64,000 bases of DNA from contig CBDFLE010000006.1 of the NCBI GenBank assembly GCA_965248925.1, positions 4,448,001 to 4,512,000 on the forward strand, read 5' to 3'. Below the pieces are notes generated by a model that did not search any database, was not told the DNA's origin, and worked only from the letters and a program-made list of their open reading frames with translations. This stretch comes from Candidatus Multivoradales bacterium. GTDB lineage: Bacteria > Acidobacteriota > Thermoanaerobaculia > Multivoradales > J023. Below, piece by piece: positions 39,435-57,562 of the stretch (position 1 is the first letter of the stretch; every line of letters begins with the position of its first letter). Both the position numbers and the translations under genes were made by a program.

Positions 39435-40064
39435 TCAAGCGCTCGACAGCAGGCTCGATAGGCGCTGATCGCGCAAGGCCCCAACCCGCGGTGCCGGCAG
39501 CGCCAGGATCGGCAGCTGACGCCGCCTCTGCTCCAGGCGGTGGCGGCGTTGGCGAATCTCCTTGACGGCTTGGGGACCGTTGGCGCGCAACTCGCGGGCG
39601 CTGAGGTGGCAAACTTCGAGTAGCAGGCCGGCGCGGTGGCGCAGACTGTCTTCCAGGTCGTCGAGCTGGGCGGCGCGAGCCAGGGTCAGAGTGGCGGCTT
39701 CGAGATCTCCACGGTCTATCTGCACTTCGCCGAGGTGGATCGCCGCCAACCCGGCGCCGGGATCGAGTTTGGTGGCTCGCGCGAACTCGCGGTGAGCGTC
39801 TTGCGGTCTCTCCTGGCGGCGATAGAGCACTCCCAGGCAGGTGTGCAGCAAGGCGTTTCCAGGCTCCATCAACACCAATCCTTCGAAGATCGCTTGCGCG
39901 GTCTTTAGCTGACCGTGTTCGATCAATTCGCTGCCATAGGCTGCCAGGGCCACTATGTCGTCGGACTCGAGCCCCAGAGCGGCAGCTAGCGAATCGTGGC
40001 CGTGGTGGAGTTCTCGCAGGCCGACATCAAGAGCTTCCTGAAGCTCTTGCAAGGTCGAAGTCAT
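39435..40064 (-). CDS. T3SS TPR chaperone (SycD/LcrH- or SctY-like); intact copy A
   Basis: YGSELIEHGQLKTAQAIFEGLVLMEPGNALLHTCLGVLY, three TPRs, adjacent to T3SS cluster. Confidence 0.75.
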   Translation of the reverse strand: MTSTLQELQEALDVGLRELHHGHDSLAAALGLESDDIVALAAYGSELIEHGQLKTAQAIFEGLVLMEPGNALLHTCLGVLYRRQERPQDAHREFARATKLDPGAGLAAIHLGEVQIDRGDLEAATLTLARAAQLDDLEDSLRHRAGLLLEVCHLSARELRANGPQAVKEIRQRRHRLEQRRRQLPILALPAPRVGALRDQRLSSLLSSA

Positions 40065-40066
40065 GC

Positions 40067-40597
40067 TCAGCCACTCCTGCCCAGCGTCGGCCCGCTGAGG
40101 CCAGCGTCGAGTTGCAGACGCAGCTCAGCGAGTTCACCAATGGCCTTGCCAAATCGTCCCAGGCGTTCGAGTTGTTGGCCCAGCTGCTGGGCCTGAAGGG
40201 CATTGGTCGGAGAGCACAGGGGAGTCTGTGTTGCCGCCGCTGAGGCATCGCCATGCCCAGTCTGCCCAGTGCCGAACTGTGCCTCGATCTGGCTGAGCTG
40301 CGTTCTCAGGCTGGCGGAGTTGGAAACCACCGCCTGCAGCCGGGGGGCGAGGCGTTCGATAGCTTGTTGGCGAACGTCGGCCGATGGATTCTTGCCGCTG
40401 CGATCGCGAAAAATCGGCAGGTCGCGAGCAGCAGGCGAGTGGGCGAAGCGCGCGAAGATGCTGCCGGCGCGCATCGGCGAAGCCGCCAACACCCGCCCGC
40501 TGGTGGCGCGTCGAGGAGCGATGGCAGCGGGCAGCGTAGCTACCGGGCTAGAGGGTTGGCCGCCGATGCTGCCGAAAACCCGTGCGATGAAACCCAT
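40067..40597 (-). CDS. Hypothetical protein, candidate T3SS substrate / SctX-like
   Basis: RBS AGGAG; S/P/A-rich N-terminus and C-terminal amphipathic helices; immediately upstream of the TPR chaperone. Confidence 0.45.
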   Translation of the reverse strand: MGFIARVFGSIGGQPSSPVATLPAAIAPRRATSGRVLAASPMRAGSIFARFAHSPAARDLPIFRDRSGKNPSADVRQQAIERLAPRLQAVVSNSASLRTQLSQIEAQFGTGQTGHGDASAAATQTPLCSPTNALQAQQLGQQLERLGRFGKAIGELAELRLQLDAGLSGPTLGRSG

Positions 40598-40805
40598 GTT
40601 GAATGACTCCTGTCGGAGACTCGGCCACGCCGTGGCCGGGCAACTCCTGACCCGATGGTTCTATGGTGTTTACGGCCGTTTGGCGGGTCGGGTTTCTCCA
40701 GTTTACCCTAGAAACATTGCAATAAAGGGATGTTTTGCCCCGCCGCACTTCGTTGAAACCCCCCGGGTAGCACCTGCGTATCCACAATTGTAAGCGCTGA
40801 TATCG

Positions 40806-40811
40806 TATAAT
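40806..40811 (+). promoter_or_regulatory. Possible sigma70 -10 element for the T3SS operon
   Basis: Perfect TATAAT about 90 bp upstream of the first T3SS gene in a GC-rich genome; no -35 at 17-bp spacing. Confidence 0.35.
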
Positions 40812-40896
40812 GACTTCGCTATCGACGCTTCACGGTCGACTCGGTCGACTGCTGCATGGGACTACAACAGGTAAGTACAACAATGGAGATGCTCCT

Positions 40897-41175
40897 ATGG
40901 ACGACGCGCAGACTTTTTCCGTCGACGACCTCCTCAGTGTCGACAATGCCCCGTCGGCGGTCGCTGCCGAACCCACCTTGGGCGCCATCAACGCCGAAGA
41001 CTTCCCGATTTTGCATCGCTGGTTGAGCTACGACCAGAGCGCCTTCGAAGCCGAGCTGGAGATTCTCCTCGGGCTGTCGACCGAGCCCGAGCTAGCCAAG
41101 GTTAGAGACGGCATCGAAGCTGCTTCGGTCGCTCTGGCCGAGATCTACGCTGCCAAAGACGTGCTGCTCCAGTAG
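40897..41175 (+). CDS. Small acidic protein, first gene of the T3SS operon (possible YscE-like co-chaperone)
   Basis: RBS GGAG; 92 aa, acidic and helical; position before needle-like genes. Confidence 0.45.
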   Translation: MDDAQTFSVDDLLSVDNAPSAVAAEPTLGAINAEDFPILHRWLSYDQSAFEAELEILLGLSTEPELAKVRDGIEAASVALAEIYAAKDVLLQ

Positions 41176-41288
41176 TCGTCTGTTCGCGTCGCGACTCGCT
41201 TTACCCAGCAACGGTGAGACGATTCGTCACTGTCAGAAATGAGGGCTCGGTGATCGAGCCCGCGTCAAACAACAGCAGGAGGAACACC

Positions 41289-41576
41289 ATGAGTAGCAGG
41301 ATTGGACAAAACACGCCGACCGTGGCTGCCAAACCGCTCGAACTTGAACCGCAGGTTGCCAGGACCCGAGGCCTGAGGGTCGATCGCAGCGATGTCGCCA
41401 AGAAGCCGTACAAGGGCGATCCGATGAACAATCCGGATCTGGACGCCAGCTCGCGCGCTCTGTTGCAGGCTCAGCAGGCGATGTTCCGCAAGAACCAGGC
41501 GGTCACCATGGCCTCTAACCGGCAGAAGTCCGAGCATGATACCCGCAAGGCGGTGATCAACAACATGCGGGTCTAA
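41289..41576 (+). CDS. T3SS needle-subunit (SctF)-like protein 1
   Basis: RBS AGGAGG; C-terminus QQAMFRKNQAVTMASNRQKSEHDTRKAVINNMR matches the SN..K...D...AI..N.R pattern of PrgI/SctF. Confidence 0.55.
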   Translation: MSSRIGQNTPTVAAKPLELEPQVARTRGLRVDRSDVAKKPYKGDPMNNPDLDASSRALLQAQQAMFRKNQAVTMASNRQKSEHDTRKAVINNMRV

Positions 41577-41680
41577 GCCCCGCGTTCGACCCACTGGGGT
41601 GGCGGTGGCGGGTGCCGCAGAGCACCGGCCACCTTTCACCGGCCACTTGTCACTGGTCATTTTTCATCGAGGAGACACTT

Positions 41681-41959
41681 ATGGCCGTTCCCTACGTCGC
41701 CGGGGTCGTCGCCGGAAAATTGCTCGACCACATTTTCGCCAAACGGCGGGAAAAGAAAGGTATTACCGCGGGCGGAAGCTCTTTCGGCGAGACCTTGGGC
41801 GCCCTTTCAGGTTCCGATTCGACAGGCCAGATGGACCAGCTGCTAGCGCAGCAGCGAGAGATGTACGCCAAGAACATGCACTACACGATGCATAGCAACA
41901 TGGAGAAAGCGCGCTTCGATCTGTCGAAGAGCATTCTTCAGAATCTGCGGACCGGCTGA
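41681..41959 (+). CDS. T3SS needle-subunit (SctF)-like protein 2
   Basis: RBS GAGGAG; C-terminus QREMYAKNMHYTMHSNMEKARFDLSKSILQNLR, same pattern. Confidence 0.55.
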   Translation: MAVPYVAGVVAGKLLDHIFAKRREKKGITAGGSSFGETLGALSGSDSTGQMDQLLAQQREMYAKNMHYTMHSNMEKARFDLSKSILQNLRTG

Positions 41960-42032
41960 ACGCTTACTAGGCGCGCCGTCGTCCGACGATCGGGTACACA
42001 CAACACGACTTTCAACTCTGAGGATACCCACG

Positions 42033-42431
42033 TTGAGCACGCACGATCTTCGTTCCGAGCTTCCCTCCCTCTTCGTAGAGTTGTCGCTGGCGCTAACCAC
42101 CGCCGATCTGCCGCGGCGCGCTGACGACCTGATCGAGTCGCTACGAATCCTCTGGCCAGATCGCCAGATCACCCACTTCGTCAGTGGCATCGTCCATGCC
42201 AAGGCCCAGCGTTTCGAAGAAGCGGAAGGTCACTACCGAGCGGCGCTGGCCGAGGAGCCGGAGAATCCGGGTATCCAGGCGATGCTGGCTGAGGTGCTGA
42301 TGGGTCTCGATCATTGGCAGGAGGCCAAGCAGCTGATCCTCGCCGTGCTCGACAATGACCAGGCCGGCCCGGCCCGGGTCTTTGCTGAAGAGCTTCGCGG
42401 CCAGCTGGCTGGCGTCGCGGCCACCGGCTAG
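42033..42431 (+). CDS. TPR protein, candidate YscG/HrpB1-like chaperone
   Basis: GIVHAKAQRFEEAEGHYRAALAEEPEN...LAEVLMGLDHWQEA TPRs, between needle-like and rod-like genes. Confidence 0.6.
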   Translation: MSTHDLRSELPSLFVELSLALTTADLPRRADDLIESLRILWPDRQITHFVSGIVHAKAQRFEEAEGHYRAALAEEPENPGIQAMLAEVLMGLDHWQEAKQLILAVLDNDQAGPARVFAEELRGQLAGVAATG

Positions 42432-42540
42432 AGAGTAGTAAAGCGACTGACGGGAGGGCTTTCACCACGCCCTTTCTATCGGCCTAGGCGGCGGCGCCCT
42501 GCGCGCCATCGCCGTGGCCACCACATCAAGGAGATCAGCG

Positions 42541-43014
42541 ATGTCGCTAGGTGCCGTTTCCCTGGGCAACCAGGAAGTGCTGCAACAAGCCCAGCGGGCG
42601 GTCGACAGCACCCCCAAACAGCTGCAGGACTTCAGCGAAGTGCTGAACCAGCTCGATAGCGCCGGCCAGGATGGCGCCGGTTCTGCTGCTGGAAACACAA
42701 TTCAAAACGATTTGCCAGCGCTCGACATTAACCAGGTCGAGCTGCCGGACGATCTCGATGGGATCTACTCCGACAAACTCGAGCAGGTCGCCCAACCCGG
42801 CGGTGCCGAACGTTTGTTGGCCGAAGCGCAAGACAAGTATTCGCGCCTCGACCAGATGATCGCCGAACTTGGCAGCGGCCGCAGCTACAGCCCGGAAGAG
42901 CTGGTTGGCATGCAGACCGAAGTGCATCGCATCACTTTTGAACTCGAAGCCACCACCAAAGTCATGGGGCAAGTGGTTTCCGGGATCAAGAACCTGATGC
43001 AGCAGCAGATCTAG
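42541..43014 (+). CDS. sctI: T3SS inner rod protein SctI-like
   Basis: C-terminus SPEELVGMQTEV...ELEATTKVMGQVVSGIKNLMQQQ; directly upstream of sctJ. Confidence 0.65.
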   Translation: MSLGAVSLGNQEVLQQAQRAVDSTPKQLQDFSEVLNQLDSAGQDGAGSAAGNTIQNDLPALDINQVELPDDLDGIYSDKLEQVAQPGGAERLLAEAQDKYSRLDQMIAELGSGRSYSPEELVGMQTEVHRITFELEATTKVMGQVVSGIKNLMQQQI

Positions 43015-43025
43015 GAGATCGGCTA

Positions 43026-43865
43026 GTGATACGCAGATTCCAAGCCCTTATTTTGGCCCTGGCTCTGGTGCTGCTGCTGGGTTGCAACACCGACCTGCTG
43101 CACCAGCTCGAAGAGGTCGAAGCCAACCACATCATCACCCAGCTGCAGCAGCACGGCATCAGTGCTGAGAAAAAGGTCGAAGATGCCGAGGCCAACACCT
43201 GGACGGTGCGGGTATCGGGTCGCTCCGCCGCTCGGGCGCAGGCGATTCTTGACGAGTACAAGCTGCCCAAGCAGCGCGAGCCACGGGTGCGTGATTTGTT
43301 CTCGGCCCAGGGCTTGGTGCGCACCCCGACCCAGGAAGGCATCCTGGCGCAGGCGGCGCTCGAAGGTGAGCTGGCCTACACCCTGGAGGGCATCGAGGGC
43401 ATTATCGACGCCCGCGTCCATTTGGTGATGCCGCGCACCGATCTCACCGGCCGGCGGATCAGCCAGGCCAAGGCCTCGGTATTCGTCGAGTACCAGCCTT
43501 CGGCTCAGGGAGTGGTGCCGGTGCAGGATGGCGAGATTCAGAAGATGGTGGCGCACGCGGTCGAGGATCTGGTGCCGGCCAATGTCGCCGTAGTGCAGAA
43601 ACCGGCCTCGATCGCCAGCCCGGCGACCCCCGCCGGCGGTGGCCCGGAGTTGGTCAGCCTGGGGGGCCTGGTGGTCGCTTCAGATACCCTGCCAGCGCTG
43701 CGCATCGCGGCGGTCACCGTCGCTGGCCTGGTGGTGGTCCTCGGCCTGCTCTTGTTTCTGCTCAGCCGCCGCCTGAGCCGGTTGCGGGCTGAGTTGCGCG
43801 GGGCGCAGCAAATCCAAAACGTCCCCTCGGCGCGGGCCGAAGGTGAAACGGCGAAGGCCAGCTGA
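43026..43865 (+). CDS. sctJ: T3SS inner membrane ring lipoprotein SctJ
   Basis: Lipobox LLLGC; LLHQLEEVEANHI; ELAYTLEGIEGIIDARVHLV; AKASVFV; C-terminal TM. Confidence 0.93.
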   Translation: MIRRFQALILALALVLLLGCNTDLLHQLEEVEANHIITQLQQHGISAEKKVEDAEANTWTVRVSGRSAARAQAILDEYKLPKQREPRVRDLFSAQGLVRTPTQEGILAQAALEGELAYTLEGIEGIIDARVHLVMPRTDLTGRRISQAKASVFVEYQPSAQGVVPVQDGEIQKMVAHAVEDLVPANVAVVQKPASIASPATPAGGGPELVSLGGLVVASDTLPALRIAAVTVAGLVVVLGLLLFLLSRRLSRLRAELRGAQQIQNVPSARAEGETAKAS

Positions 43866-43867
43866 AA

Positions 43868-44803
43868 ATGGCGCCGGAGGCATCATGGCAGAGTTTCTTT
43901 TCTCTCGCCCTGAGTAGCTGGCGGGAGCGTGAGGGGGAAAGCCGTGCCGAACTTCCCGAGTGGTTGCCTGGCGGGCTGATCGAGCGCCTCGGCAAGAGCC
44001 CGATCGAGTGCCGGAGTGAACTCCTCGAATTGCTGCGCCAGCGCAGTGTGGCCGGTACTCTAGAGCTTGTCCACCCGACTTGGGTGGTCCTACATTTGCC
44101 TACCGACGCACTGCTTTGCCGCTGGGCGGTGATGAGCCTGCCCGCCGCTTTGCGCCTTCCCACCGCGCTGCTGGTCAGCAGGCGAGTAGGCGACTTCGAG
44201 CCCGGTAGCCCGCCACCGTGGTTTGCTGGGTGGTGGCGTCGCCGGCTCGCTCAGCGCCTGGACTATCCGGCACCGATGCCATGGACCCATGCTCCTGACC
44301 TGCCCATCTCTTGGCTTTGGCGGTTGCCGGTGGAGCCGCTGCAAGAGGTGCTCTTGCGCTATGGTCTGCGACCCTTGGCGGCGGTCTTCGCCAAGCTTGA
44401 TGCCAGGGATGCGGCGCGCTTGGCCTACACCGTTGCGCCGCCACTGCGGGATCGGTTGGTGGGCTTGGTGCGGGGTCGCGAACATCCCGACACAGAGCCG
44501 TGGTTCGCGGTCTATCAACGCTGGGTTGAGGTCTCGGGCGAGCCGGCCGAACTGCCGCTGCGAATGGCCTTACTGCGACTCGCCAGCAGCTCTTCGCTGC
44601 GCCGTCAACCGGCCGATTTTCGCCGCCTGGCTTACCGCTTGCCGACCAAATTTGGCCAGCTGCTGTTCGACGATCCCCCTGCCGGCCTGCCCTCTAGCGG
44701 CGCCGGTGCCGAACTCGGCCAGTTGGTTGGCGACCTGGTCGCGGCGGGGGAGTTGGAGATTCCGGGTCAGCTGTCAGGATCTGCTGCTGAGACTCTGCAA
44801 TGA
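43868..44803 (+). CDS. SctK-like sorting platform protein (positional call)
   Basis: Between sctJ and sctL; contains VHPTW (YscK-like IHPSW motif). Confidence 0.5.
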   Translation: MAPEASWQSFFSLALSSWREREGESRAELPEWLPGGLIERLGKSPIECRSELLELLRQRSVAGTLELVHPTWVVLHLPTDALLCRWAVMSLPAALRLPTALLVSRRVGDFEPGSPPPWFAGWWRRRLAQRLDYPAPMPWTHAPDLPISWLWRLPVEPLQEVLLRYGLRPLAAVFAKLDARDAARLAYTVAPPLRDRLVGLVRGREHPDTEPWFAVYQRWVEVSGEPAELPLRMALLRLASSSSLRRQPADFRRLAYRLPTKFGQLLFDDPPAGLPSSGAGAELGQLVGDLVAAGELEIPGQLSGSAAETLQ

Positions 44804-45429
44804 ACACCAAGATCATCAAGTCGAGTCCGCCGGCCGAGGCGACGAATCCGCACGGCAAAATAATCGAGCGCGAGGTCTTGCTGGCGCACGAGGAAGCCCG
44901 ACGGGTGTTGGTGGAAGCCGAAGTGCAGGCCGCCGCGGTGGTCGAGTCGGCGCGCCAGCAGGCGGCGGCGGTGTTGCGGCGGGCCGAGCGTGAGGGGCAG
45001 GAACGCTCGCTGGCCGATTGGCAGCAGCGTTTGGCGCGGCTCGCCGAGGCGCGTCAGCAAGTGCTTGCCGCTGCTCGGCCACAGATCCTGCGATTGGCGG
45101 TGCGAGTGGCGGAGAAGATCCTCCGCCGTCGCTTGCAAGAGGATCCGGCGGCCTTTGATCCGCTGGTCGAAGAGACTCTGGAGACCGTTCGCGCCCAGCC
45201 CGGACAGCAGATCGTGCTGCGTGCCCATGCCGAGGACCGGGCGCGGCTGGAAGACCTCCGCCGCCGCTTGATCGAGCGCCATCCGGGGTGGAGCAGCCTT
45301 CAGGTTCAGGTCGATCCGGCGATGGCTGTCGGAGGCTGTCGGGTGGAGACGGAGTACGGCACCGTCGACGCTGGCTTGTCGACCCAACTGCGGGCGATCG
45401 AGAAGATTTTGCTGGAAGGCCAAGGATGA
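44800..45429 (+). CDS. sctL: T3SS stator SctL (FliH/YscL family)
   Basis: [39 protein letters not shown]. Confidence 0.9.
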
Positions 45430-46778: not shown

Positions 46779-46779
46779 G

Positions 46780-47271
46780 ATGGCTGCAGCCTATCCCCTG
46801 CAAGCCGTGCTCGAGCTGCGGCGGCGACAACGTGACACCGCCCGCCAGGCCCTCGCCGAGCGCATCGAGGACGAGCACCGCGCCAACCTCGAGCAGACGC
46901 GGCTGCTGCGTCGTGGCGAAAAGTTGGCCGAGGAGGTTCTGCGCGCCAGCTCGCGGCTCTACGAACCGGCCGACGACGGCACTCTAGAAGTGGCCGGCGC
47001 CCTTGATCGCCGCGCTGATTTCGAGCATTGGCAGCAAGAAGTTGCCGAGCAACAGCAGCGGATGGAGCGCCAGCGGCAGGCTATTGCCCAAGCTGCCGCG
47101 GCGATTGATGCCGCGCGCGAAGAGCTACTCGAAGCAACCCGAACTCTCGAGGCTATCGACAAGCACTTCAGCCGCTGGCTGGACAAGATCGCCCGCCAAG
47201 CTCGTCGCCGCGAAGAGCGCCTCGCTGAGGAGATCAACACCAGCCGTTTCGTCAGCGGCCAAAGTGGCTAG
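46780..47271 (+). CDS. sctO: T3SS stalk SctO (YscO/FliJ family)
   Basis: YPLQAVLELRRR N-terminus, coiled coil, follows sctN. Confidence 0.8.
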   Translation: MAAAYPLQAVLELRRRQRDTARQALAERIEDEHRANLEQTRLLRRGEKLAEEVLRASSRLYEPADDGTLEVAGALDRRADFEHWQQEVAEQQQRMERQRQAIAQAAAAIDAAREELLEATRTLEAIDKHFSRWLDKIARQARRREERLAEEINTSRFVSGQSG

Positions 47272-47283
47272 GAGGATTTGCCG

Positions 47284-47904
47284 ATGAGTATCCAACGTCT
47301 TTCCGGATCCCCCGCCTCCGCGGCAAAAACCGCGAAACCCCCTCGCGGTAACTCTGCGCGCCAACAGGCACCCCGCTTTGCGGATGCTCTGGCCAAAGGC
47401 AAGAAGAACTCTCGCCGCGAGCTCTCCACGGAACAGCGGCTGATGGCCAAGGCAGAGCAGCAGCGGCGCGACAACCCAGAAGCCGAGCCGCCCACTGTCC
47501 CTGGCGACCCGTCGTTGCAGCTCGCTGCCGGCTCGGTGCTGGAAGTGGCCGCCAGAGTGGCGCCGAGCGAGGGTGCAGGCACGGCGGCGGCTAGTGGCTT
47601 GGCGGGTAGCGACCAACGAATCCTCGATCAGATGGTCGCGCAGGTGATCAGCGCCGCTCGCACTCTTGATGGCGGCCGTGGCCAACACCTCCAGATTTCA
47701 CTCAACCTGGGTGCCCTGGGGCAGGCTGAGGTCGAACTGCGCAAGGATGCCAACGGCGCCATCGATTTACTCTTCCGCGCTGAGGATGCAGCTGCCGAGG
47801 GAGAACTGGGTCGTGGTCTGAGTGAGCTGCGCCGACGATTGCTGAGCCGCGGCCTGCGTCCTGGCCGTCTCGAAGTACGCCGTGATTCGGAGCAGCGTCG
47901 ATGA
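47284..47904 (+). CDS. sctP: T3SS ruler SctP / FliK-like
   Basis: Disordered N-terminus and C-terminal T3S4-like domain (LQISLNLGALGQAEVELR...LSELRRRLLSRGL...LEV). Confidence 0.65.
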   Translation: MSIQRLSGSPASAAKTAKPPRGNSARQQAPRFADALAKGKKNSRRELSTEQRLMAKAEQQRRDNPEAEPPTVPGDPSLQLAAGSVLEVAARVAPSEGAGTAAASGLAGSDQRILDQMVAQVISAARTLDGGRGQHLQISLNLGALGQAEVELRKDANGAIDLLFRAEDAAAEGELGRGLSELRRRLLSRGLRPGRLEVRRDSEQRR

Positions 47905-49490
47905 CCCCGGCTACCAGCTCTGGCTACCTGCCGCCGGGCAGCGCTCGCGGGCTGCCGTGGGGATTGGAGCTGCCGTGCCGAGGAGGCGAGCAGGTCGCCG
48001 CAAGTGCTGCTCGGGGTCGTATCCGCAGTCTGATCGAAGGGCCGCTAAAACCTTTGGTGGCGGGGGTCGCCGAGGCTCTCGACCTATGGTGGCCGGTGCG
48101 TACCAAAGTGGCCACTGCCGCCGAGTTGGTGGTCGCTGGACCCGACTGTGGCCCGCAGGTGGTGACTTTGCAAGATCCGGTCAGCCGCATTGGCCGTTCG
48201 GCGGCTTGCCAGCTGCGCCTTGACGGGGCGGGGATCGACGCCGAGCACTGTGAGCTGCGGCTTGACGGCGGCCGTCTGTCGCTGCTCGACCTGGGCAGCA
48301 TTAGCGGCACGGTGGTCAATGGCTATCGCTTGCGCCCCTTCGAACCGAGGAGTCTCGAAGCTGGTGACGAGATCTTGCTGGCGCCTTTTTCAATCGTCGT
48401 CGGCGCCTGTGGGCTCGACCCGCGGCAGCAGCCAGCGCGGCTCAGCCTACGCCAGCCGCTGTGGCTCGAGGCCGAGGATCCCTTCACCCGGCTTGGCGCC
48501 GCCACTGATCTTTGGGTGCGGCTGCGGGTTGGCGGTTGGGAGGGCTTCCTCCGCCTGCCCGGTCGGTGGACCGAGCAGGCCTATCAAAGTCTCGATCTGC
48601 AGCTGCCGCCGGGCCGATTTGGCGACGATGAGCTGGATCGGGCGATCGCTTCTTTCTTGCTCGAGAGGGTTGCCGATGCCATCGCGCGCCAGGGTGATCA
48701 GCCGATTTCGCTGGGACAGGTGCTGCCCGCCGAGCTGCTGTGGCAGCGGCAGGGAGCGCTGAGTGCTACCTGGGAAGGGGCGATTTTCGATCTCGAACTG
48801 GCTGGCCGTACCGCGGAATGCGCGGTGATTTGGGCCGCGGAGCAGGCCGAGAACCGGCCTCTGGTCGAGCCGCGATGGTTGGCCGAGTTGCCCTTCACCG
48901 TGTCGGTAGTAGCCGGCAGCCTCGGCCTAGCCATCGACAGCCTGGCCGAGGTCGAGCGCGGCGACATCGTCTTGCCCGATTGCTGGCTGGCGGGCGGCTG
49001 GGTCGCCAGCGAGGCTGAACCGTCCGCGGAGGCGGCTGATCCGATCTCGCTAAAGCTGGGTCGGGTGAGGGCGGTCGTGCAATCTCTCAGCCGATCGGCG
49101 GAACTCGAAGTGTCGCCGGAGAACACCGGGGATTACCATCTGCGCTGGACCGATTCTTGGATCCAGGCAACGAAAGGAGACCCGATGGCGACAGAACGTG
49201 AGGATGAGAGCAACGAGCCGCAAGCGGAAGCCTCTCCTGAGGCACCGATTCAGATACCTAAAGAACTCGAAGTGACGGTTTCCTTCGAGCTCGATCGGTT
49301 ACGGGTGACTCTGGAAGAGCTGAGTTCCTGGTCGCCCGGAGGCACCGTGGAGCTGCAACGAAAACCCTCCGACCCGGTGCGCATCTTGCTGCACCAGGGC
49401 GCTTCGACGCGGGTCATTGGCTCTGGCGCGGTGCTGGTGGTCGATGGCCGCCTCGGGGTTCAGATCGACGATTGGCAAGTGGAGAGCTGA
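47901..49490 (+). CDS. sctQ: T3SS C-ring SctQ with internal FHA domain
   Basis: FHA (RIGRSAAC...EHCEL...DLGSISGTVVNG) and SpoA motifs (SLAEVERGDIVL; FELDRLRVTLEELSSWSPGGTVEL...VVDGRLGVQI). Confidence 0.8.
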   Translation: MTPATSSGYLPPGSARGLPWGLELPCRGGEQVAASAARGRIRSLIEGPLKPLVAGVAEALDLWWPVRTKVATAAELVVAGPDCGPQVVTLQDPVSRIGRSAACQLRLDGAGIDAEHCELRLDGGRLSLLDLGSISGTVVNGYRLRPFEPRSLEAGDEILLAPFSIVVGACGLDPRQQPARLSLRQPLWLEAEDPFTRLGAATDLWVRLRVGGWEGFLRLPGRWTEQAYQSLDLQLPPGRFGDDELDRAIASFLLERVADAIARQGDQPISLGQVLPAELLWQRQGALSATWEGAIFDLELAGRTAECAVIWAAEQAENRPLVEPRWLAELPFTVSVVAGSLGLAIDSLAEVERGDIVLPDCWLAGGWVASEAEPSAEAADPISLKLGRVRAVVQSLSRSAELEVSPENTGDYHLRWTDSWIQATKGDPMATEREDESNEPQAEASPEAPIQIPKELEVTVSFELDRLRVTLEELSSWSPGGTVELQRKPSDPVRILLHQGASTRVIGSGAVLVVDGRLGVQIDDWQVES

Positions 49491-49492
49491 GC

Positions 49493-49842
49493 GTGGACAC
49501 TTCTCTTTGGCCCTCTTTGCTCAATGTCGGTGGGGCACTGGTGGTGGTAGTGCTGCTGGCGGTGGTGCTGCTGCGCTTTGCCGCACCCTGGTTGCGACGC
49601 TTGCAGACACCGGAGGCTCGCAGATTTCAGTATTGGAGGTCAAAGCCCTCGATCGCCAGCACCGGGTGGCCCTGCTGCGGGTACGAGAAGAAGATTTTCT
49701 GGTCGCCTTGGGCGCTGGTAGCCCGTGCTTGCTGCGCTGCTGGCCGGCGGGCGACCGTGACCCCAAAGAGCCGGAGGCGCTGGCTTCCGGCACCGCCGAG
49801 ACCAGCCGCAGCGCAACCAGCCGTAGAGAATCCAGCGACTAG
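49493..49842 (+). pseudogene. FliO-like protein, frameshifted near 49600
   Basis: TM helix LVVVVLLAVVLLRF in one frame; ISVLEVKALDRQHRVALLRVREEDFLVALG (FliO-like beta domain) in another; directly upstream of sctR. Confidence 0.6.
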
Positions 49843-49855
49843 GAGTTTCTCGCCG

Positions 49856-50605
49856 ATGCCTCAGCTAATTCCTCTTTTCGCCATTGCCGGTACAACCGCC
49901 GCCAGTACCGTGCCCAATGCTGCGGCGAGCTTGGGGGCCAATCCTCTCTCCCTGATGCTGTTGCTGGCCCTGCTGTCGATGTTGCCCTTCGTGCTGATGA
50001 TGTCAACCTCCTTCCTGAAATTCGCCGTGGTGCTGTCTCTGCTGCGCCAGGCGCTGGGCACTCAGCAGGTGCCGCCGACGCCGGTGATCATGGGCCTTTC
50101 GATGATCTTGACGGTCTATGTGATGTCGCCGGTGCTGGGTGAGGTCTATGCCGAGTTGGAGCCGCAAATTGTGGCCACTGACTCCACCGAGATGCTGTCG
50201 GGAAAGGGAGCTGAGACTGTGTTGGGGGCGCTCAAGCGGGCGGCGCCTGCACTCAAAGGTTTCCTGGTCAAGCATGCTCATGGTCGCGAAGTGGAAGCGT
50301 TTCATGCTTGGTCGAACATGCTGCGCAGCGGGGCCACCGGGGTCGAACCACTGGCTCGCGACAGCTTGTTGGTGCTTATTCCGGCCTTCGCTGTCTCTGA
50401 ACTCAACGAGGCCTTCACCATCGGTTTCTTGCTCTTCTTGCCCTTCTTGATCATCGACATGGTGGTGTCGAACATCTTGCTGGCGATGGGCATGCACATG
50501 CTCTCGCCGGTGGTGGTGTCGCTGCCCTTCAAGCTGTTGCTGTTCATCATGATCGATGGTTGGGCCCTGCTTACCCGAGGGTTGTTACAGCCATACTTTG
50601 TCTGA
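49856..50605 (+). CDS. sctR: T3SS export apparatus SctR
   Basis: RBS AGGAG; STSFLKFAVVLSLLRQALGTQQVPP; LLAMGMHMLSPVVVSLPFKLLLF..IDGW. Confidence 0.95.
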   Translation: MPQLIPLFAIAGTTAASTVPNAAASLGANPLSLMLLLALLSMLPFVLMMSTSFLKFAVVLSLLRQALGTQQVPPTPVIMGLSMILTVYVMSPVLGEVYAELEPQIVATDSTEMLSGKGAETVLGALKRAAPALKGFLVKHAHGREVEAFHAWSNMLRSGATGVEPLARDSLLVLIPAFAVSELNEAFTIGFLLFLPFLIIDMVVSNILLAMGMHMLSPVVVSLPFKLLLFIMIDGWALLTRGLLQPYFV

Positions 50606-50656
50606 ACCGCGTCGAGCCGGCGGACCATCGAGTCGCCACGGCTGGGAGTCCACTTC

Positions 50657-50923
50657 ATGGAAAGCCACATCATAGATCTCCTACAGCGCGCCATCCTGGT
50701 GACCGTGATGGTCTCAGGGCCACCGATCGCTGCCGCCATGGTGGTGGGTCTGGGGCTGGCCCTGGTGCAAGCCTTAACCCAGGTGCAGGAGCAGACCCTG
50801 CAGATGGCGTTCAAGATCATCGCCGTCTTTGGAACCCTGTCGGTGCTGGGCTATTGGATGGCCAATCAAGTGCACGCTTTCGCCCGTCTGGTGTTCGAGA
50901 ACTTCGGTACTTGGGTGGGTTGA
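50657..50923 (+). CDS. sctS: T3SS export apparatus SctS
   Basis: VGLGLALVQALTQVQEQTL..AFK. Confidence 0.95.
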   Translation: MESHIIDLLQRAILVTVMVSGPPIAAAMVVGLGLALVQALTQVQEQTLQMAFKIIAVFGTLSVLGYWMANQVHAFARLVFENFGTWVG

Positions 50924-50932
50924 GGGGGCGCT

Positions 50933-51772
50933 GTGACCACCGGGCTCGAAGCATTCTTCACCCCGCTCGCCGCCGAGCTGGGAGTGCGCCACGGTCTTGA
51001 GGGCACCTTGCGCTTGCTAACCCTGGCGATGGCCCGCTGGGCACCGATCATTACCTTGGCGCCGTTCATGGGTGGCCGCTTGATCCCGGCGCCGGTGCGG
51101 ATGGGTTTGCTGGTGCTGTTCTCGCTGCTGGTGTTGCCGGCGATCAGCCAGACGGCGCCGCGGCCCTTGTTGATTGGCCCCGTCGAGTGGTGGGCGCTGG
51201 TGCTGAAGGAGACCTTCATCGGTCTGGTGATCGGATTCGCTGCCTCCCTGGTGTTTTGGGGTGGTGAAATGGGCGGCCGTTTGATCGACACGGTGCGTGG
51301 CACCACCACCGCCAACTTATTGATCCCCCAAGCCAAAGTGCAGAGCACGATTCTCGGCGATGTCTACTTCCAGCTTTTCATCGTGCTCTATCTAGTGTCC
51401 GGCGCTCACCTCTTCTTTTTCGCCGCGGTGGCCGATTCCTACCGTCTACTGCCACCCACCGAGTTGACTTTGAATCTCGGTGGTGGGGCCGAACTCTGGC
51501 TACTGGCGGTGGGAAACCTTTTTGTCATCGCGGTCAAGATCATTGCTCCGGCGCTGGTGGTGGTGATGTTTCTCGACATAATGTTGGGGGTGGCCAACCG
51601 CATGGCGCCGCAGCTCAACGTTCACTTCTTGGGCATGTCGTTGAAGGCATCATTGGCGTCTTTGGCGTTGTCTTTGTCGTTGTACTACGTGCTGTCAATG
51701 GCCGGTGACCTCTTCGCTGACCAGCAGCGCTGGATCGAGCTGCTATTTCGCCAGTTGTCTAGACCTGGCTGA
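50933..51772 (+). CDS. sctT: T3SS export apparatus SctT
   Basis: LKETFIGLVIG, GRLIDTVRG, ANRMAPQLNVHFLGMSLK. Confidence 0.93.
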   Translation: MTTGLEAFFTPLAAELGVRHGLEGTLRLLTLAMARWAPIITLAPFMGGRLIPAPVRMGLLVLFSLLVLPAISQTAPRPLLIGPVEWWALVLKETFIGLVIGFAASLVFWGGEMGGRLIDTVRGTTTANLLIPQAKVQSTILGDVYFQLFIVLYLVSGAHLFFFAAVADSYRLLPPTELTLNLGGGAELWLLAVGNLFVIAVKIIAPALVVVMFLDIMLGVANRMAPQLNVHFLGMSLKASLASLALSLSLYYVLSMAGDLFADQQRWIELLFRQLSRPG

Positions 51773-51786
51773 GTAGGAAGCAGACG

Positions 51787-52905
51787 ATGTCTGAAAAGAC
51801 CGAACAACCCACCCCCAAGAAACTGCGCGATGCCCGGCGCAAGGGCAACATCGCCTTCAGCCGTGATTTCAATGGCATCGTTACTTACATCGTGGGTCTG
51901 GCGTTGGTCTTCGTCGCCGCTGGGGGCATCGCGCGGGGCTTTCGCGACTTCTATGTCGAGGTCATCGAAGTGATCGCTATCGGCAACTTCGAGGACGGAG
52001 CCTGGGCCGAGATGACTGGCCGTGCTTTGTCGACGGTCTTTGCCATGTCGGCGCCCTTCATGCTGGCGGTGGCCCTGGTTGGTGGGGTGGTGGGTTTTCT
52101 CCAGGCCGGGCCACTGTTTTCTACCGAGCCCTTGGTGCCGAAGCCGGAGAAGCTCAATCCGCTGAATAAGCTCAAGCAGTGGTTCGCGCCCAAGGGTCTG
52201 TTCGAGTTGGCCAAGTCTGCGCTCAAGCTGGGTTTGATTTTCTGGATCGGCTGGCTAGTGCTGCGCGGCAGCTCGGGGCAGCTGCTACAGCTCGGTCTGC
52301 TCGGCGAGCGCGAGTTGCTGATCTTTCTGGCCTCACACGTCAAGCTCTTCCTGGCCATCATCGGCTTCGCCTTTCTGATCTTGGGGGTGGTCGACGTCCT
52401 TTTCCAGCGTTGGCAGTGGCGGCGCGGTCTGCGGATGTCGAAAGACGACATCAAGCGCGAGTGGAAGAGTGCGGAAGGCGACCCCTTGATCAAGTCGCAG
52501 CGCAAGGCCCTGCATCGCAGCATGGCGGCGGATGGCGGTGCCGCTGGCGCGACCAAGAAGGCGGCGGCGGTGGTGGTTAATCCCACCCACCTGGCGATCG
52601 CTCTGGAGTTCGACGAAGGCGCCGGGCAAGCTCCGGTGGTGGCGGCCAAGGGCCAGGGCAAGTTGGCCAAGCAGATCTTGCGGGTGGCGCGCCGGCATCA
52701 AATTCCGATTATTCGCAACAAGCCGCTGGCCTGGCAGCTGCTGGAGATCGACGTCGAAGAGGAGATTGACCCCGATCTCTATGAAGCAGTGGCGGAAGTG
52801 ATTTTGCTTGCCCGCAAGCTGCAAGCGCGGGCCGCCGGCGAGGTCGCTGACGAACCGGAGGATGATCCAGATGAGCCTTCCCATGGCTCGGAATCGGTGC
52901 CTTGA
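51787..52905 (+). CDS. sctU: T3SS switch protein SctU
   Basis: EKTEQPTPKKLRDARRKG; MSKDDIKREWKSAEGDP; NPTH autocleavage motif. Confidence 0.96.
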   Translation: MSEKTEQPTPKKLRDARRKGNIAFSRDFNGIVTYIVGLALVFVAAGGIARGFRDFYVEVIEVIAIGNFEDGAWAEMTGRALSTVFAMSAPFMLAVALVGGVVGFLQAGPLFSTEPLVPKPEKLNPLNKLKQWFAPKGLFELAKSALKLGLIFWIGWLVLRGSSGQLLQLGLLGERELLIFLASHVKLFLAIIGFAFLILGVVDVLFQRWQWRRGLRMSKDDIKREWKSAEGDPLIKSQRKALHRSMAADGGAAGATKKAAAVVVNPTHLAIALEFDEGAGQAPVVAAKGQGKLAKQILRVARRHQIPIIRNKPLAWQLLEIDVEEEIDPDLYEAVAEVILLARKLQARAAGEVADEPEDDPDEPSHGSESVP

Positions 52906-52998
52906 GTAGACCCTTATGGCCCGCTAGCTTGGCGATGAGACACGGTCGATGGATCTGCCGGTAGATTTGCCGGTAGACCTTAGAGTTACAGCGAAAGG

Positions 52999-55197: not shown

Positions 55198-55225
55198 GCG
55201 GTGACCGGCAAGGAGAGAGCGCGAG

Positions 55226-55795
55226 ATGTCATTTCAGGTGTTGGTGCAGAATCCGGCGGGCGAGGTGCTGCGCTGGGAGCTGGATAAGAGTTCGGTCTAC
55301 CTCGGCCGTCTCGAGGGCAATGACATTCGTCTCACCCATTCGTTTGTCTCGGGCCTGCACTTGTTGATCGAGCGTCGCGGTAGCGGCTTTGTGGTCAAGG
55401 ACTTGGGTTCTACCGAGGGAACCCTGTTGCGGGGCAAGGTGATCGAGCCGCACGTCGAACAGTCCTGGCGCTTCGGCGAGTCGTTGCAGATCGGTAATCT
55501 GGTGTTGCAGGTAGAGCCGGGAGAGGACGAGACCCTGGTCGAAGTGCTGCCCGAGTCCCTGACGGTCGGTGTCCGCGGGGAGCTACCGGCGGTTTCCGCA
55601 GCGAGCGCCCTGGGATCCGGCGCGGACGTCATCGACGCAGTTCCCAACGCCGCTGATGGCAACATCTTCGACACCGCGGCCAGCCCGCCGCGTGCGCCTG
55701 CGCGGCCGTTGCCTTGGGGGCTGATACTGCAATTCCTGGCCGCTTTCGTGGTCCTCGCCGGCGTCATGTTAGCGGTCGTCACTTTGTTGCTTTAG
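55226..55795 (+). CDS. FHA domain protein with C-terminal membrane anchor
   Basis: LGRLEGNDIRL...VSGLH...DLGSTEGT; hydrophobic C-terminus. Confidence 0.8.
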   Translation: MSFQVLVQNPAGEVLRWELDKSSVYLGRLEGNDIRLTHSFVSGLHLLIERRGSGFVVKDLGSTEGTLLRGKVIEPHVEQSWRFGESLQIGNLVLQVEPGEDETLVEVLPESLTVGVRGELPAVSAASALGSGADVIDAVPNAADGNIFDTAASPPRAPARPLPWGLILQFLAAFVVLAGVMLAVVTLLL

Positions 55796-55804
55796 GAGTT
55801 CTTC

Positions 55805-57562
55805 ATGGCGCCTGCAAAAATGCATGGAATTCTTCGTCTCGAGCAAGGCGAGGAGATTTTGGCTGAACTCGAGCTGACCCCGGGCCGGCCGGTGATTCTG
55901 GGTCGCTCCGAGCAGGCCGAGGTGCGGGTGCAGCACGCAACGGTGTCGCGTCGCCACGCCCGCCTGTGGATCGATGCTGAGGGTGCCCAACTAGAGGATC
56001 TGGGCTCATCCAACGGCACTTTGCTCGACGGCCAGAAAATAGAGGGCCAGGTGACCCTGGCCGATGGCCAGCGAATTCAGCTCGGCCAGCGAACAGTCGC
56101 CGAGCCGGTGAAAATTCGCTTTGAGGATCCGGCCGCCGGTGTGCTGCGGGAGATGGGGTTGTGGGACGATTCGCCAGCAGCCAGAACTAGAGCCGGGTCG
56201 TCGGCGGATGAAGAGGCGCCGGCTGAGAGCGGGCGAGAAGGGGCTGCGGCAACCGCTCCGGCAGGCACCAATTTGCCGGCCACCGATTCGTCGGCGGCAG
56301 CCTCCCCCTCCGCCGGCGAACGTCGGGTCGGCGAAGAGCTGCGAGATCCTCGGGTATTGTTGATCCTGGCCTTCGCTTTGGTGTTGGTGGCTGGCGCCAG
56401 CATTGGCTTGCTACGCTTCCTGCGTCCCGCGGCGACTTATTGGCGCTCAGTGCAGATCATGCCGGCGGAAATCGGTCCCGATGTCGCGGTGCGGCTGTCT
56501 AGTTTCGATATTGGCCGGGCTAGTGGACTGGAACTGTTGCTCGGTGACACGCCGGTAGAAGACTTGCAAGTCGAACGCGGCCGGCTGAGCTTTCGCGCTC
56601 CCCAGCTCGACACCCTGGGCGGCGGCAAACTCGGCTTACCGCTGGTGGCTCGGCGCGGTGGGGTGGAGGTCTATCAGCGGGTATTGACCTACAACGTGGT
56701 GCCGCGACTCGACCCTCTGCCGATCGAGCAGCTGCCGGTTGGCGAAGTCCTGACCTTGAGCGGTCGCGGGTTGCACGAAGATGCCAGCAAGATCGCGGTC
56801 TACTTTGGCGAGCAAGCTGGCTGGGTGCTAGAGAGCGATTCCCGGACCGTTCGCGTCCGAGTGCCGCCGGTGTTAGCTCAAGACTCGCCGCCGCGCTTGG
56901 CCTTGCGGGTCGAAGTGGATGGCTTGCGCGCCGCCGCTCCGCTGCCGGACTTCGCTATCTTGCCGTGGATTGGCGAGCCACTTCGACTGGAGCTGAGTGC
57001 CTCCTTTCGCGACCCGGTTGATGACACGGCTGGCGCTTGGCAGCTGCACCACGCCTTAGGTCCGGCTTATGTCCTGGACGGCCCGGCGCCGGCCGCGGAC
57101 GGTTCTTTGCCGGCAGCCGTGGCGCAGGTGATCGAGCGTTGGAATCAACTGTTCGAAGTCGTTGAGCGCGATCCGAGGGTCCGTCTCGTCGGCCGGACGG
57201 CGGCGGAGTCGTGTGAGCTGGTGGCGGTTGGTGGGGCGGTGGGTGGAGCAGGCTTGAGTGTTGCCCGGTTCGCCCGTGGAGAGTTGGCGCTGGCCCTCGG
57301 CTTGCGGCCTGACGACCTCTCTAACCGCAATCTCTGCGCCCGTACCGCCAGTGTGTGGGATCACCTGCTCAATGCCTTTGCCAGGGGTCAGGAAGTGCGG
57401 GGCCTGGCCAGTCCGCCGCCCTATGTCAGGGTACTTGATCGACTGGTTGCGGCCAGCCGTTGGCGGGGTGGTAATGGGCGTCCGGCGGCCAGCGATCTAG
57501 TGGTGCTGGACGCCACCGATCGCGAGCGTTTGGCTCAGGCCTTTGCTAACCCTGGAGGCTGA
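55805..57562 (+). CDS. FHA-TM-IPT/TIG-like domain protein
   Basis: LGRS...VSRRHARL...EDLGSSNGT FHA; TM LLILAFALVLVAGASIGLL; VGEVLTLSGRGL...VYFGE...VRVRVP IPT-like domain. Confidence 0.75.
   Translation: MAPAKMHGILRLEQGEEILAELELTPGRPVILGRSEQAEVRVQHATVSRRHARLWIDAEGAQLEDLGSSNGTLLDGQKIEGQVTLADGQRIQLGQRTVAEPVKIRFEDPAAGVLREMGLWDDSPAARTRAGSSADEEAPAESGREGAAATAPAGTNLPATDSSAAASPSAGERRVGEELRDPRVLLILAFALVLVAGASIGLLRFLRPAATYWRSVQIMPAEIGPDVAVRLSSFDIGRASGLELLLGDTPVEDLQVERGRLSFRAPQLDTLGGGKLGLPLVARRGGVEVYQRVLTYNVVPRLDPLPIEQLPVGEVLTLSGRGLHEDASKIAVYFGEQAGWVLESDSRTVRVRVPPVLAQDSPPRLALRVEVDGLRAAAPLPDFAILPWIGEPLRLELSASFRDPVDDTAGAWQLHHALGPAYVLDGPAPAADGSLPAAVAQVIERWNQLFEVVERDPRVRLVGRTAAESCELVAVGGAVGGAGLSVARFARGELALALGLRPDDLSNRNLCARTASVWDHLLNAFARGQEVRGLASPPPYVRVLDRLVAASRWRGGNGRPAASDLVVLDATDRERLAQAFANPGG

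Follow-up and report, generated by a model that had tools for sequence, protein, structure and literature searches.

The window analysed here, a stretch of 64,000 nucleotides from the genome of a Candidatus Multivoradales bacterium, carries between positions 39435 and 57562 a single type III secretion system (T3SS) cluster of the non-flagellar kind with 22 open frames, in which the inner-membrane and cytoplasmic parts of an injectisome are all present and a secretin is missing. Judged from its sequence and that of its relatives, the cluster probably represents a working, vertically maintained and early-branching secretin-less T3SS of Acidobacteriota. The gene set, its conservation, the placement of its SctV on the non-flagellar side and the lack of a secretin in its own and in homologous loci are direct observations; what is new is a needle-like protein family, a pair of chaperone candidates, presumed ring and pod proteins based on FHA domains, and the occurrence of such systems in several acidobacterial groups. 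The first two frames, at the left, are read from the minus strand; the other 20 lie on the plus strand, where neighbours overlap or leave short gaps, and the order sctI, J, a gene in the position of K, L, N, O, P, FHA-sctQ, fliO, R, S, T, U and V belongs to a compact cluster of about 18 kb. The genome, whose owner is described as a soil-type bacterium, comprises 7.98 Mb at 96.9% completeness, and the G+C content of the window lies between 0.56 and 0.66.

The assignment of the core rests on matches to Pfam and NCBIfam models. All of sctJ, N, Q, R, S, T, U and V score above their Pfam cut-offs, within 43026-55197, and these matches, together with the NCBIfam matches and the motifs in the translations, bear out the contiguous sct gene list and the coordinates given by an earlier, sequence-only reading of the window. 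The cluster holds more than a basal body; the core stands as described, but needle-like subunits, chaperone-like proteins and a SctD-like FHA protein are present as well. Left unnamed in that reading were a pair of SctF-like genes, two TPR chaperones of the T3SS type and the two membrane proteins with FHA domains. SctV, SctN, SctR and SctS lie above the curated cut-offs of their Sct equivalog models: SctV reaches 742.4 bits with TIGR01399 (cut-off 692.25) and fails the FlhA model (637.1 against 772.1), and SctN reaches 631.2 bits with TIGR02546, 26 bits above the cut-off of 604.75, and 101.9 bits with T3SS_ATPase_C. The Walker A motif that had been noted in SctN is found as the stretch GGGKST. 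Likewise, SctJ is a lipoprotein and not FliF, as had been proposed: it carries the lipobox LLLGC and a C-terminal transmembrane (TM) helix, and it scores 93.6 bits with YscJ_FliF, 158.5 bits with TIGR02544 (3.5 bits short of the cut-off of 161.95) and only 50.2 bits with the FliF model. The SctT model outscores that of FliR (146.3 against 126.8 bits) and the SctU model that of FlhB (316.7 against 291), with all four below their own cut-offs, and SctL is matched about equally well by the HrpE/YscL and FliH models. SctQ combines an N-terminal FHA domain (56.2 bits, residues 96-160) with FliMN_C (52.4 bits, residues 455-525) and reaches 81.8 bits with TIGR02551 SpaO_YscQ (cut-off 100.8), SctP matches the C-terminal domain of FliK (Flg_hook, 37.1 bits, cut-off 29.8), and the probable SctI is matched by Pfam T3SS_basalb_I at E 1.4e-4 (22.7 bits, cut-off 32.4) and by TIGR02497 at 16.5 bits (cut-off 23.45).

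The phylogeny of SctV places the system on the same side. In a FastTree phylogeny of 105 SctV/FlhA rows, 54 flagellar rows are split from 51 non-flagellar rows with a support of 100, and the SctV of the window stands among the latter, in agreement with its model scores and with the non-flagellar T3SS that had been called from the letters. A 'quick' IQ-TREE search of 74 rows (LG+C20+F+G4, with Shimodaira-Hasegawa-like approximate likelihood ratio support only), rooted on 14 FlhA rows and containing no Myxococcus xanthus sequence, recovers the non-flagellar clade with a support of 100 and a six-row Myxococcota clade (96) at its base. The other 54 non-flagellar rows (95) fall into five groups, the order among which the tree does not resolve: Schekmanbacteria; Acidobacteriota with seven rows; Acidobacteriota with three rows together with Archangium-type Myxococcota (89); the clade of the window, which comprises 13 rows of Acidobacteriota only (100); and the canonical injectisomes, a separate clade of 21 rows (100). 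A long-branch warning concerns the canonical rows and none arises near the window. The phylum thus holds at least three groups of such systems in the SctV tree. Of the earlier proposal of a related deep-branching T3SS, the depth holds, since the system lies outside the canonical clade and among Myxococcota systems; a sister relationship to the Myxococcus system does not follow from the tree, in which the groups form a polytomy.

SctV was found in five of 40 relatives: the same family accounts for two, out of 23 genomes, and other families of the order for three, out of 17. Two additional rows, at E 6e-5 and 6e-4, are short pieces no better than chance. In four of the five SctV-bearing relatives, gene order agrees with that of the cluster between the SycD-like gene and the homologue of the 585-aa protein at the right end. 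SctI has a tblastn match in four of the five, and the remaining one in this count (L096) has an open reading frame (ORF) with the same C-terminus at that place; the fusion of FHA and SctQ is kept in the relatives, and the all-helical 311-aa protein in the position of SctK is kept in all five. The relative that departs from the common order, L097 (G020:C1:427600-447500), is rearranged: it has no matches for sctO, P, Q, fliO and R between sctN and sctS, and an FHA-sctQ match is found on the opposite strand, roughly 5 kb past sctI. In the phylum at large, a sample of 400 genomes includes 21 with a full-length SctV match at 43% identity or more, whereas the numerous matches at 41% or less look flagellar. 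We fetched the loci of 12 of the 21 and of one genome at 40% identity, and all 13 fall on the non-flagellar side of the SctV tree; 12 further genomes of the phylum contain variants of the cluster, and a thirteenth stretch (L115) has sctV only. The closest named relatives of SctV come from metagenome-assembled genomes (MAGs) of Thermoanaerobaculia and other Acidobacteriota with 55-64% identity, which agrees with the earlier suggestion of a phylum other than Myxococcota, and the host is, by this measure, most likely an acidobacterium. Among the best 80 of 584 related stretches there was no T3SS locus of Acidobacteriota; such loci were found by genome searches instead.

Two further acidobacterial arrangements were observed among the fetched loci. 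A second type (L110/G074, L111/G056 and L116/G164) has the order J-N-O-FHA-Q-R-S-T-U, an F-like protein of 220-240 aa, a TPR protein and sctV, and this order resembles that of the Archangium loci. In the SctV tree, a third type (L108, L109 and L112) joins the Myxococcota clade of the Archangium type. T3SSs seem either to have moved between Acidobacteriota and Myxococcota or to be very old in both.

The absence of a T3SS-type secretin extends from the cluster to the genome and to the homologous loci. No gene of the genome exceeds the cut-off of the SctC model TIGR02516 (best 125.5 against 238.45 bits), so that the missing secretin claimed for the cluster is not found in an unlinked position either, and the three secretins that the genome does have all lie outside the cluster, in loci of the pilus or type II secretion system (T2SS) type. 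One, at 3.58 Mb, is an AMIN-bearing secretin of the PilQ type; another, at 2.79 Mb, is a TPR-secretin in a T2SS-like locus, 5 kb from a T2SSE ATPase; and the third, at 4.225 Mb, is a Tad-type secretin beside CpaB-like, TadA-like and two TadB/C-like genes. A profile built from three canonical SctC sequences and these three secretins recovered the secretin in five of five canonical loci outside its training set; it found none in the window or in nine Myxococcota loci, nor in the 425,640 bases of 24 stretches that surround the T3SSs of 18 genomes of the phylum. Flanks of 12-14 kb in three relatives and the window contain no conserved outer-membrane candidate. The genome has no HrpJ match, as expected from the earlier claim that the SctW gatekeeper is lacking, and no tip protein or translocator is recognisable, with TyeA and the translocator families not searched for. 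It likewise has a single FHIPEP gene and no Flg_bb_rod match, which supports the reported lack of flagellar rod genes; flagellin, FliG and MotAB were not searched for.

Between the left end of the cluster and sctI lie two paralogous small genes, F1 and F2, each of which ends in a conserved helix and each of which has a Shine-Dalgarno site before its ATG (AGGAGG and GAGGAG, respectively), and the relatives have a single gene of this kind, coding for 79-93 aa, at the same place. When the F-like profile was aligned with five canonical SctF sequences taken from annotated or syntenic loci, hhalign returned probabilities of 88.4% and 89.1% (E 2-3e-6) over alignments reaching both C-termini, compared with 0.1-0.3% for control profiles of TPR, SctI and SctO, the last of which consisted of the single window protein. 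An assignment of the F-like proteins to the SctI family was rejected, as profile similarity is absent (0.3%). Against the PDB, a four-sequence F-like profile matched Salmonella PrgI in six of six cases (E 0.029-0.35), up to the last residue. An exhaustive profile search yielded 2151 representatives at E<=0.001, and among the best 150 of them T3SS_needle_F is matched by six (E<=0.01) and is the only Pfam family with more than three matches, HrpF and HrpA_pilin having two each. A word-indexed search for homologues returned only the query's own cluster, and a tblastn match of a needle query in a locus of Escherichia albertii was discarded as false. F-like genes (E<0.01) occur in the window, in four of the five relatives and in eight of the 13 phylum loci, three of the remaining loci not extending far enough upstream to include one; across the 24,982 ORFs of all fetched loci, the sole other match lies in one Archangium locus. 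There, in an Archangium sp. MAG (L005:8610-9164), a frame of 185 aa that lies immediately upstream of sctV has an F-like helix at its end (E 3e-6 with one profile and 9e-6 with another); a second Archangium locus (L030) has none.

The position of these genes matches that of needle genes elsewhere. The order small gene, F, TPR, I, J, K position, L and N equals that of annotated canonical loci, those compared being the Ysc-type locus of Photobacterium (E, F, G, H, I, J, K, L) and the pDV locus of Nitratidesulfovibrio vulgaris (needle, TPR, hypothetical, sctJ, hypothetical, sctL, sctN). The 121-aa protein in the YscE position has no Pfam or NCBIfam family match and a tblastn homologue in one of the five relatives (L096), the others having small ORFs at that place. 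The 132-aa TPR protein next to F2 reaches 27.4 bits with HrpB1_HrpK (cut-off 29.3) and is weakly matched by CdsG, HrpB1 and SctY models. In a predicted complex with F2 it scored 0.61, the best of three controls scoring 0.00, and the model puts the C-terminal helix of F2 (residues 73-90) into the TPR groove, with at least 48% of contacts agreeing between runs and a partner predicted local distance difference test (pLDDT) value of at least 51. Of 80 solved complexes, 58 attain the mark applied to such predictions, and of 110 mismatched pairs two do; these counts hold only roughly here because own alignments were used for the prediction. Complexes of needle subunits with their chaperones have already been solved structurally, so the pass of this pair may reflect likeness to them and is not proof of binding.

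The second chaperone candidate, the 209-aa TPR protein at the left end, has LcrH_SycD (TIGR02552) as its best NCBIfam model (E 1.2e-14, 54.1 bits against a cut-off of 104.8, positions 5-134 of 136) and matches TPR_16 and TPR_19 in Pfam. Its homologues head the cluster in four of the five relatives and score 55-70 bits with the same model. The 176-aa protein encoded directly ahead of it matches no Pfam or NCBIfam family and is a candidate for the substrate that the SycD-like protein would chaperone. In relatives, glycine-rich proteins of 290-410 aa directly precede the SycD-like gene (L093:1735-2604; L094:16662-17891 and L095:18141-19025, both on the minus strand), where the window has the unrelated-looking 176-aa protein instead. 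Their N-terminal parts are hydrophobic and Gly-zipper-like, their C-terminus matches the F-like profile, and they may be tip or pore-forming substrates. In G036 (L123:1851-5672), three genes diverge from the cluster. Their products are a protein of 397 aa, a further TPR protein of the SycD/LcrH-like kind (69.9 bits) and a protein of 654 aa, the last of which shares 27% identity with a 627-aa protein encoded upstream of the cluster in G026 (L121:8636-10519); those of them without a family match are candidate secreted proteins.

Two FHA proteins follow sctV. The shorter one, of 189 aa, has an FHA domain (45.8 bits), a Yop-YscD_cpl match (34.9 bits, cut-off 33.2) and a TM segment at residues 161-189. 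It has tblastn matches after sctV in four of the five relatives and none in L097, the match in L094 coinciding with the start of the homologue of the longer protein, and it is also found in three phylum loci of the window clade. The longer one, of 585 aa (FHA585), is kept after sctV in the window clade. It matches Yop-YscD_cpl (49.8 bits, cut-off 33.2) and TIG (24.2 bits), and has a TM segment at residues 178-208 by hydropathy, or a helix at 182-206 in the model. The model (pLDDT 79.3) predicts an FHA domain, a disordered linker, the TM helix, a pair of Ig/IPT sandwiches, then an alpha/beta domain and, last, a helical domain. Foldseek aligns its FHA domain best with that of Chlamydia CT664 (E 9.3e-9, 33% identity), a protein which we take to be the chlamydial SctD; the periplasmic part resembles the IPT domains of plexins and MET, and PrgH or YscD chains do not occur among the listed matches. 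FHA585 reaches 18.2 bits with the SctD model TIGR02500 (cut-off 86), in its N-terminal part only, so that the claim of a missing canonical SctD stands for the periplasmic fold and not for the topology. Residues typical of phosphothreonine-binding FHA domains (GR, SxxH and NG) are all kept in FHA585 and in part only in the other two FHA domains. A word-indexed search with the 585-aa protein gave eight matches to the FHA domain only, and its homologues were therefore taken from the loci of the relatives. Seven full-length homologues measure 685-731 aa and have an extra conserved C-terminal region; the window protein lacks it, as only 80 bases remain before the AhpC gene.

Between sctQ and sctR, the assembly shows a fliO gene whose N-terminal TM helix and C-terminal beta core are in different frames, at a place where four relatives have an intact fliO of 99-118 aa. 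We compared contigs of four public runs over 49300-50000; they stem from one sample of one study and are possibly the source of the assembly itself. The fourth run has no coverage there, and in all three spanning contigs (41-43 kb) an extra G behind position 49611 joins both frames. As this restores a single frame, the frameshift is an assembly error and the gene is intact, and other split genes of the assembly may share the same cause. Among the public runs, no RNA runs holding the cluster sequence are listed. FliO in non-flagellar T3SSs is reported for Myxococcota in the part of PMC12248157 considered here.

From our point of view, the parts could work together as follows. FliO would help to assemble SctRST, SctU and SctV in the inner membrane; the lipoprotein SctJ would form the inner ring and FHA585, replacing the canonical SctD, the outer ring. 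FHA-SctQ, the 311-aa protein in the K position, SctL, SctN and SctO would constitute the sorting platform and the ATPase. First substrates would be SctI and one or two SctF-like subunits, which the 132-aa TPR chaperone would keep monomeric in the cytoplasm; SctP as the ruler and SctU with its NPTH switch would then limit the length of the rod or needle and change the substrate class, after which later substrates, the 176-aa protein here and the glycine-rich proteins in relatives, would be delivered by the SycD/LcrH-like chaperone. By analogy with Myxococcus, the role would most likely be a contact-dependent action on other microbes.

A number of results weigh against a working system of this kind. 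A needle that reaches the surface without an outer-membrane channel has no known route, and FHA585, in its model, has the topology of SctD without its periplasmic ring-building fold. SctI, SctJ, SctT, SctU, SctQ and the SycD-like protein lie below the curated NCBIfam cut-offs, FliI_clade2 scores nearly as high on SctN as the SctN model (622.6 bits, cut-off 629.8), and in the SctN tree the window clade lies unplaced between FliI and canonical SctN, a tree that cannot place the root because it holds only two FliI rows. The Pfam needle model T3SS_needle_F (PF09392) has no match to the F proteins of the window at E<=0.1 and none above its cut-off in the genome, where its best match, located elsewhere, has 13.9 bits against 29.4; 144 of the 150 best F-like representatives have no needle Pfam match. 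With a six-sequence F-like profile, PrgI accounts for three of four PDB matches (E 0.26-0.96), the top match being unrelated, and with an 18-sequence profile for none of three. The 311-aa protein is matched by none of the Pfam or NCBIfam models; compared by hhalign with SctK/HrpB4, represented by three canonical sequences, it reached only 0.3%, and Foldseek with its model (pLDDT 76.9) returned no PDB match at E<=0.001. A PDB profile search with the same protein found nothing meaningful, and FliG chains appear in Foldseek only at E 3-5 with TM-scores of 0.15-0.22, so that the protein is described by its SctK or FliG position alone.

The main alternative, which we regard as rather unlikely, is a needle-less exporter of the Myxococcus T3SS* type that acts up to the periplasm only or by way of a pilus-type secretin, with the F-like proteins serving as a rod or adaptor. 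It is favoured by the lack of a secretin in the locus and in the T3SS loci of the 18 genomes of the phylum, by the PilQ-type, T2SS-like and Tad-like secretin loci of this genome, and by the two or three secretins that all five T3SS-bearing relatives carry elsewhere. A precedent exists in the Myxococcus system, which is reported to lack both needle and secretin and to act together with the Kil pilus, a Tad-like system (PMC12075869 and PMC3459982, in the portions used here), and the F-like C-terminus just before sctV in the Archangium locus means that the F-like family is no proof of a difference from the systems called needleless. However, an orthologue of the Tad secretin is found in only two of the 40 relatives and in none of the five with SctV, which speaks against the Tad/Kil partnership that the sequence-only reading had brought up as well. 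The nearest secretin genes are 40 kb to 900 kb away from the clusters, and a ruler, an NPTH switch and two chaperone candidates, one of them predicted to grip the C-terminal helix of the F-like protein, exceed the needs of a periplasmic exporter.

Two other explanations appear highly improbable to us, and to about the same degree. The cluster could be the non-functional remnant of a canonical injectisome that has lost its secretin, the periplasmic domains of SctD, its gatekeeper and its translocon; the sub-threshold scores of several parts, the patchy occurrence in five of 40 relatives and the frameshifted fliO of the assembly could be read in this way. Yet the frameshift is an assembly error according to all three spanning contigs, all other genes of the cluster are open, order and content are kept in relatives whose SctV is only 54-64% identical, and the clade lies outside and not inside the canonical clade with a support of 100. 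The cluster could also be an export core that derives from the flagellum and does not serve secretion, comparable to the inner-membrane structures related to flagella, or the platforms of nanotubes, in other bacteria (PMC9380563 and PMC6456723, in the parts consulted), with which the presence of FliO, the nearly equal scores of the FliH and FliI models and the SctN tree, which is not resolved towards FliI, are compatible. Against this stand the position of SctV on the non-flagellar side (support 100), the Sct models passed by SctV, SctN, SctR and SctS together with the failed FlhA model, a lipoprotein SctJ in place of FliF in a genome without a rod match, and accessory genes of the injectisome type in injectisome order.

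If the cluster is a working secretin-less T3SS, its place in the evolution of injectisomes deserves attention. In the sections of Abby and Rocha (2012; PMC3459982) drawn on here, non-flagellar T3SSs are known only from Chlamydiae, Proteobacteria (including Myxococcales) and Verrucomicrobia; the secretin-less and SctF-less Myxococcales systems form the earliest branch and are treated as the sole survivors of a pre-secretin stage, and the first non-flagellar T3SS is inferred to have had SctF, later lost in Myxococcales. Herrou et al. (2025; PMC12075869, in the part used) describe the M. xanthus system as 'needleless' and tied to the Kil pilus. One could speculate, and we do so tentatively, that the window clade is the intermediate that Abby and Rocha inferred and did not find, with needle, chaperones, ruler and switch and with a secretin that was never recruited. 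In that case, the needle preceded the outer-membrane pore in injectisome evolution, the label 'needleless' may reflect a failure of detection in Myxococcota, given the F-like protein before sctV in Archangium, and one would have to assume either a periplasmic or envelope-piercing filament without secretin or an outer-membrane route of unknown kind.

Independently of this speculation, a separate and well-conserved secretin-less lineage in Acidobacteriota changes the picture given by surveys and provides independent material for ordering the steps from flagellum to export machine, needle and secretin. The T3SSscan/TXSScan model counts the secretin among nine mandatory components (Figure 3 legend of PMC4793230, the part relied on here), a rule that the window cluster fails, and the needle-like family, with its 2151 representatives, has been overlooked by current models. 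We found no description of a non-flagellar T3SS in Acidobacteriota in the literature, of which the supplements of PMC3459982, PMC4793230 and PMC12248157 could list some; public annotation already names SctV homologues in acidobacterial MAGs, so that the system's occurrence in this phylum is no novelty to databases. If cultivated carriers exist, T3SS function without an outer-membrane pore could be tested outside Myxococcus.

Features of the T3SS cluster, in positions of the window
Positions	Strand	Feature	Basis
39435..40064	-	209-aa TPR protein, relative of the SycD/LcrH class (translocator chaperone class)	TIGR02552
40067..40597	-	176-aa protein, no family match	Co-transcribed with the SycD-like chaperone gene that follows it
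40810..41175	+	121-aa small protein, YscE position (needle co-chaperone)	Position only
41289..41576	+	SctF-like needle candidate F1, 95 aa	hhalign; ATG behind AGGAGG
41681..41959	+	SctF-like needle candidate F2, 92 aa	hhalign; adjoins TPR chaperone gene
42033..42431	+	132-aa TPR protein, YscG/CdsG-like needle-chaperone candidate	Weak matches, position
42514..43014	+	SctI-like inner-rod protein (probable)	Weak Pfam/TIGR matches
43026..43865	+	SctJ inner-membrane ring lipoprotein	YscJ_FliF, lipobox
43868..44803	+	311-aa all-helical protein, SctK (or FliG) position, family unknown	Position
44800..45429	+	SctL stator	Pfam FliH 71.8 bits
45426..46778	+	SctN ATPase	Probable start is the ATG overlapping the sctL stop
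46780..47271	+	SctO stalk	Pfam YscO-like 45 bits, cut-off 27
47278..47904	+	SctP/FliK-like length-control protein	Flg_hook
47901..49490	+	SctQ with N-terminal FHA domain, 529 aa	FHA and FliMN_C
49472..49842	+	FliO-like, between sctQ and sctR	Frameshifted here; intact in public-run contigs
49856..50605	+	SctR (probable start)	FliP 218.7 bits; TIGR01102 yscR 211, cut-off 208.6
50657..50923	+	SctS	Bac_export_3 84 bits; TIGR01403 78.4, cut-off 76.5
50933..51772	+	SctT	Bac_export_1 174.5 bits
51787..52905	+	SctU switch protein with NPTH	Bac_export_2 333 bits
52999..55197	+	SctV export gate	FHIPEP 712.5 bits
55226..55795	+	189-aa FHA protein with C-terminal membrane anchor	FHA, Yop-YscD_cpl
55805..57562	+	585-aa FHA-TM-periplasmic Ig/IPT protein (FHA585)	SctD-like topology

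The genes that flank the cluster on both sides (AhpC, TPR, amidohydrolase and CarboxypepD_reg by Pfam) are unrelated to T3SSs, as had been noted before, and none of the flanks is kept beside the cluster in three relatives: over 12-14 kb per side, the three relatives and the window yielded one weak pair per side and nothing in common with the window. Upstream of the cluster, an RHS-repeat region (24779-29050, minus strand) consists of three consecutive ORFs of 702, 253 and 512 aa, which is either broken or another assembly indel. The idea that the cluster lies next to toxin cargo does not hold, as the RHS ORFs are about 10 kb away on the other strand, with TPR, RadC and CarboxypepD_reg genes in between, and the flanks are not kept in relatives. 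The Tad-like locus of the genome (G000:C6, about 4221700-4229700; L100:6773-14637) lies 220 kb upstream of the T3SS and codes for a SAF/CpaB-like protein, a secretin with a pilus N-terminal domain, a TadA-like ATPase and two T2SSF proteins; a second RHS protein of 1140 aa stands beside it (L100:2103-5525).

Among known systems, those of Myxococcota, including M. xanthus (mxan_2434-2464), come closest in what they lack, namely a secretin, a gatekeeper and a recognisable translocon. They likewise branch near the base of the non-flagellar systems, outside the canonical injectisomes, and have FliO (PMC12248157, in the part cited above), and the Archangium loci share FHA proteins near the cluster and, in one case, the F-like C-terminus before sctV. 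In contrast, the system described here belongs to another phylum and to a separate clade of 13 rows (support 100), is packed into a compact cluster of 18 kb with the order E-F-G-I-J-K-L-N, and has FHA-SctQ, an FHA-TM-IPT protein after sctV and two SctF-like genes with a predicted chaperone, whereas the Myxococcota systems are said to be without SctF (PMC3459982, in the sections used). Moreover, unlike the T3SS* and Kil of Myxococcus, T3SS and Tad-like locus do not co-occur among its relatives. With the canonical injectisomes of the Photobacterium Ysc plasmid and the N. vulgaris plasmid pDV, it shares the order needle-TPR-(I)-J-K-L-N-O-P-Q-R-S-T-U, and with canonical injectisomes in general a relative of the SycD/LcrH-type chaperones, a ruler and the NPTH of SctU; it differs from them in having no sctC, pilotin or ring-building sctD and no recognisable sctW, in the presence of fliO and of FHA on SctQ, and in its place outside their clade of 21 rows. 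The likeness to chlamydial systems is confined to single domains, the FHA domain of CT664 resembling that of FHA585 and CdsG weakly matching the 132-aa TPR protein, while those systems have a secretin and lie inside the canonical clade. Lastly, the flagellar export apparatus (FlhA, FlhB, FliOPQR and FliHIJ) has a homologous core and FliO, and the FliH, FliI and FliJ models score close; here, however, SctV fails the FlhA model, SctJ replaces FliF, and the genome has no rod gene.

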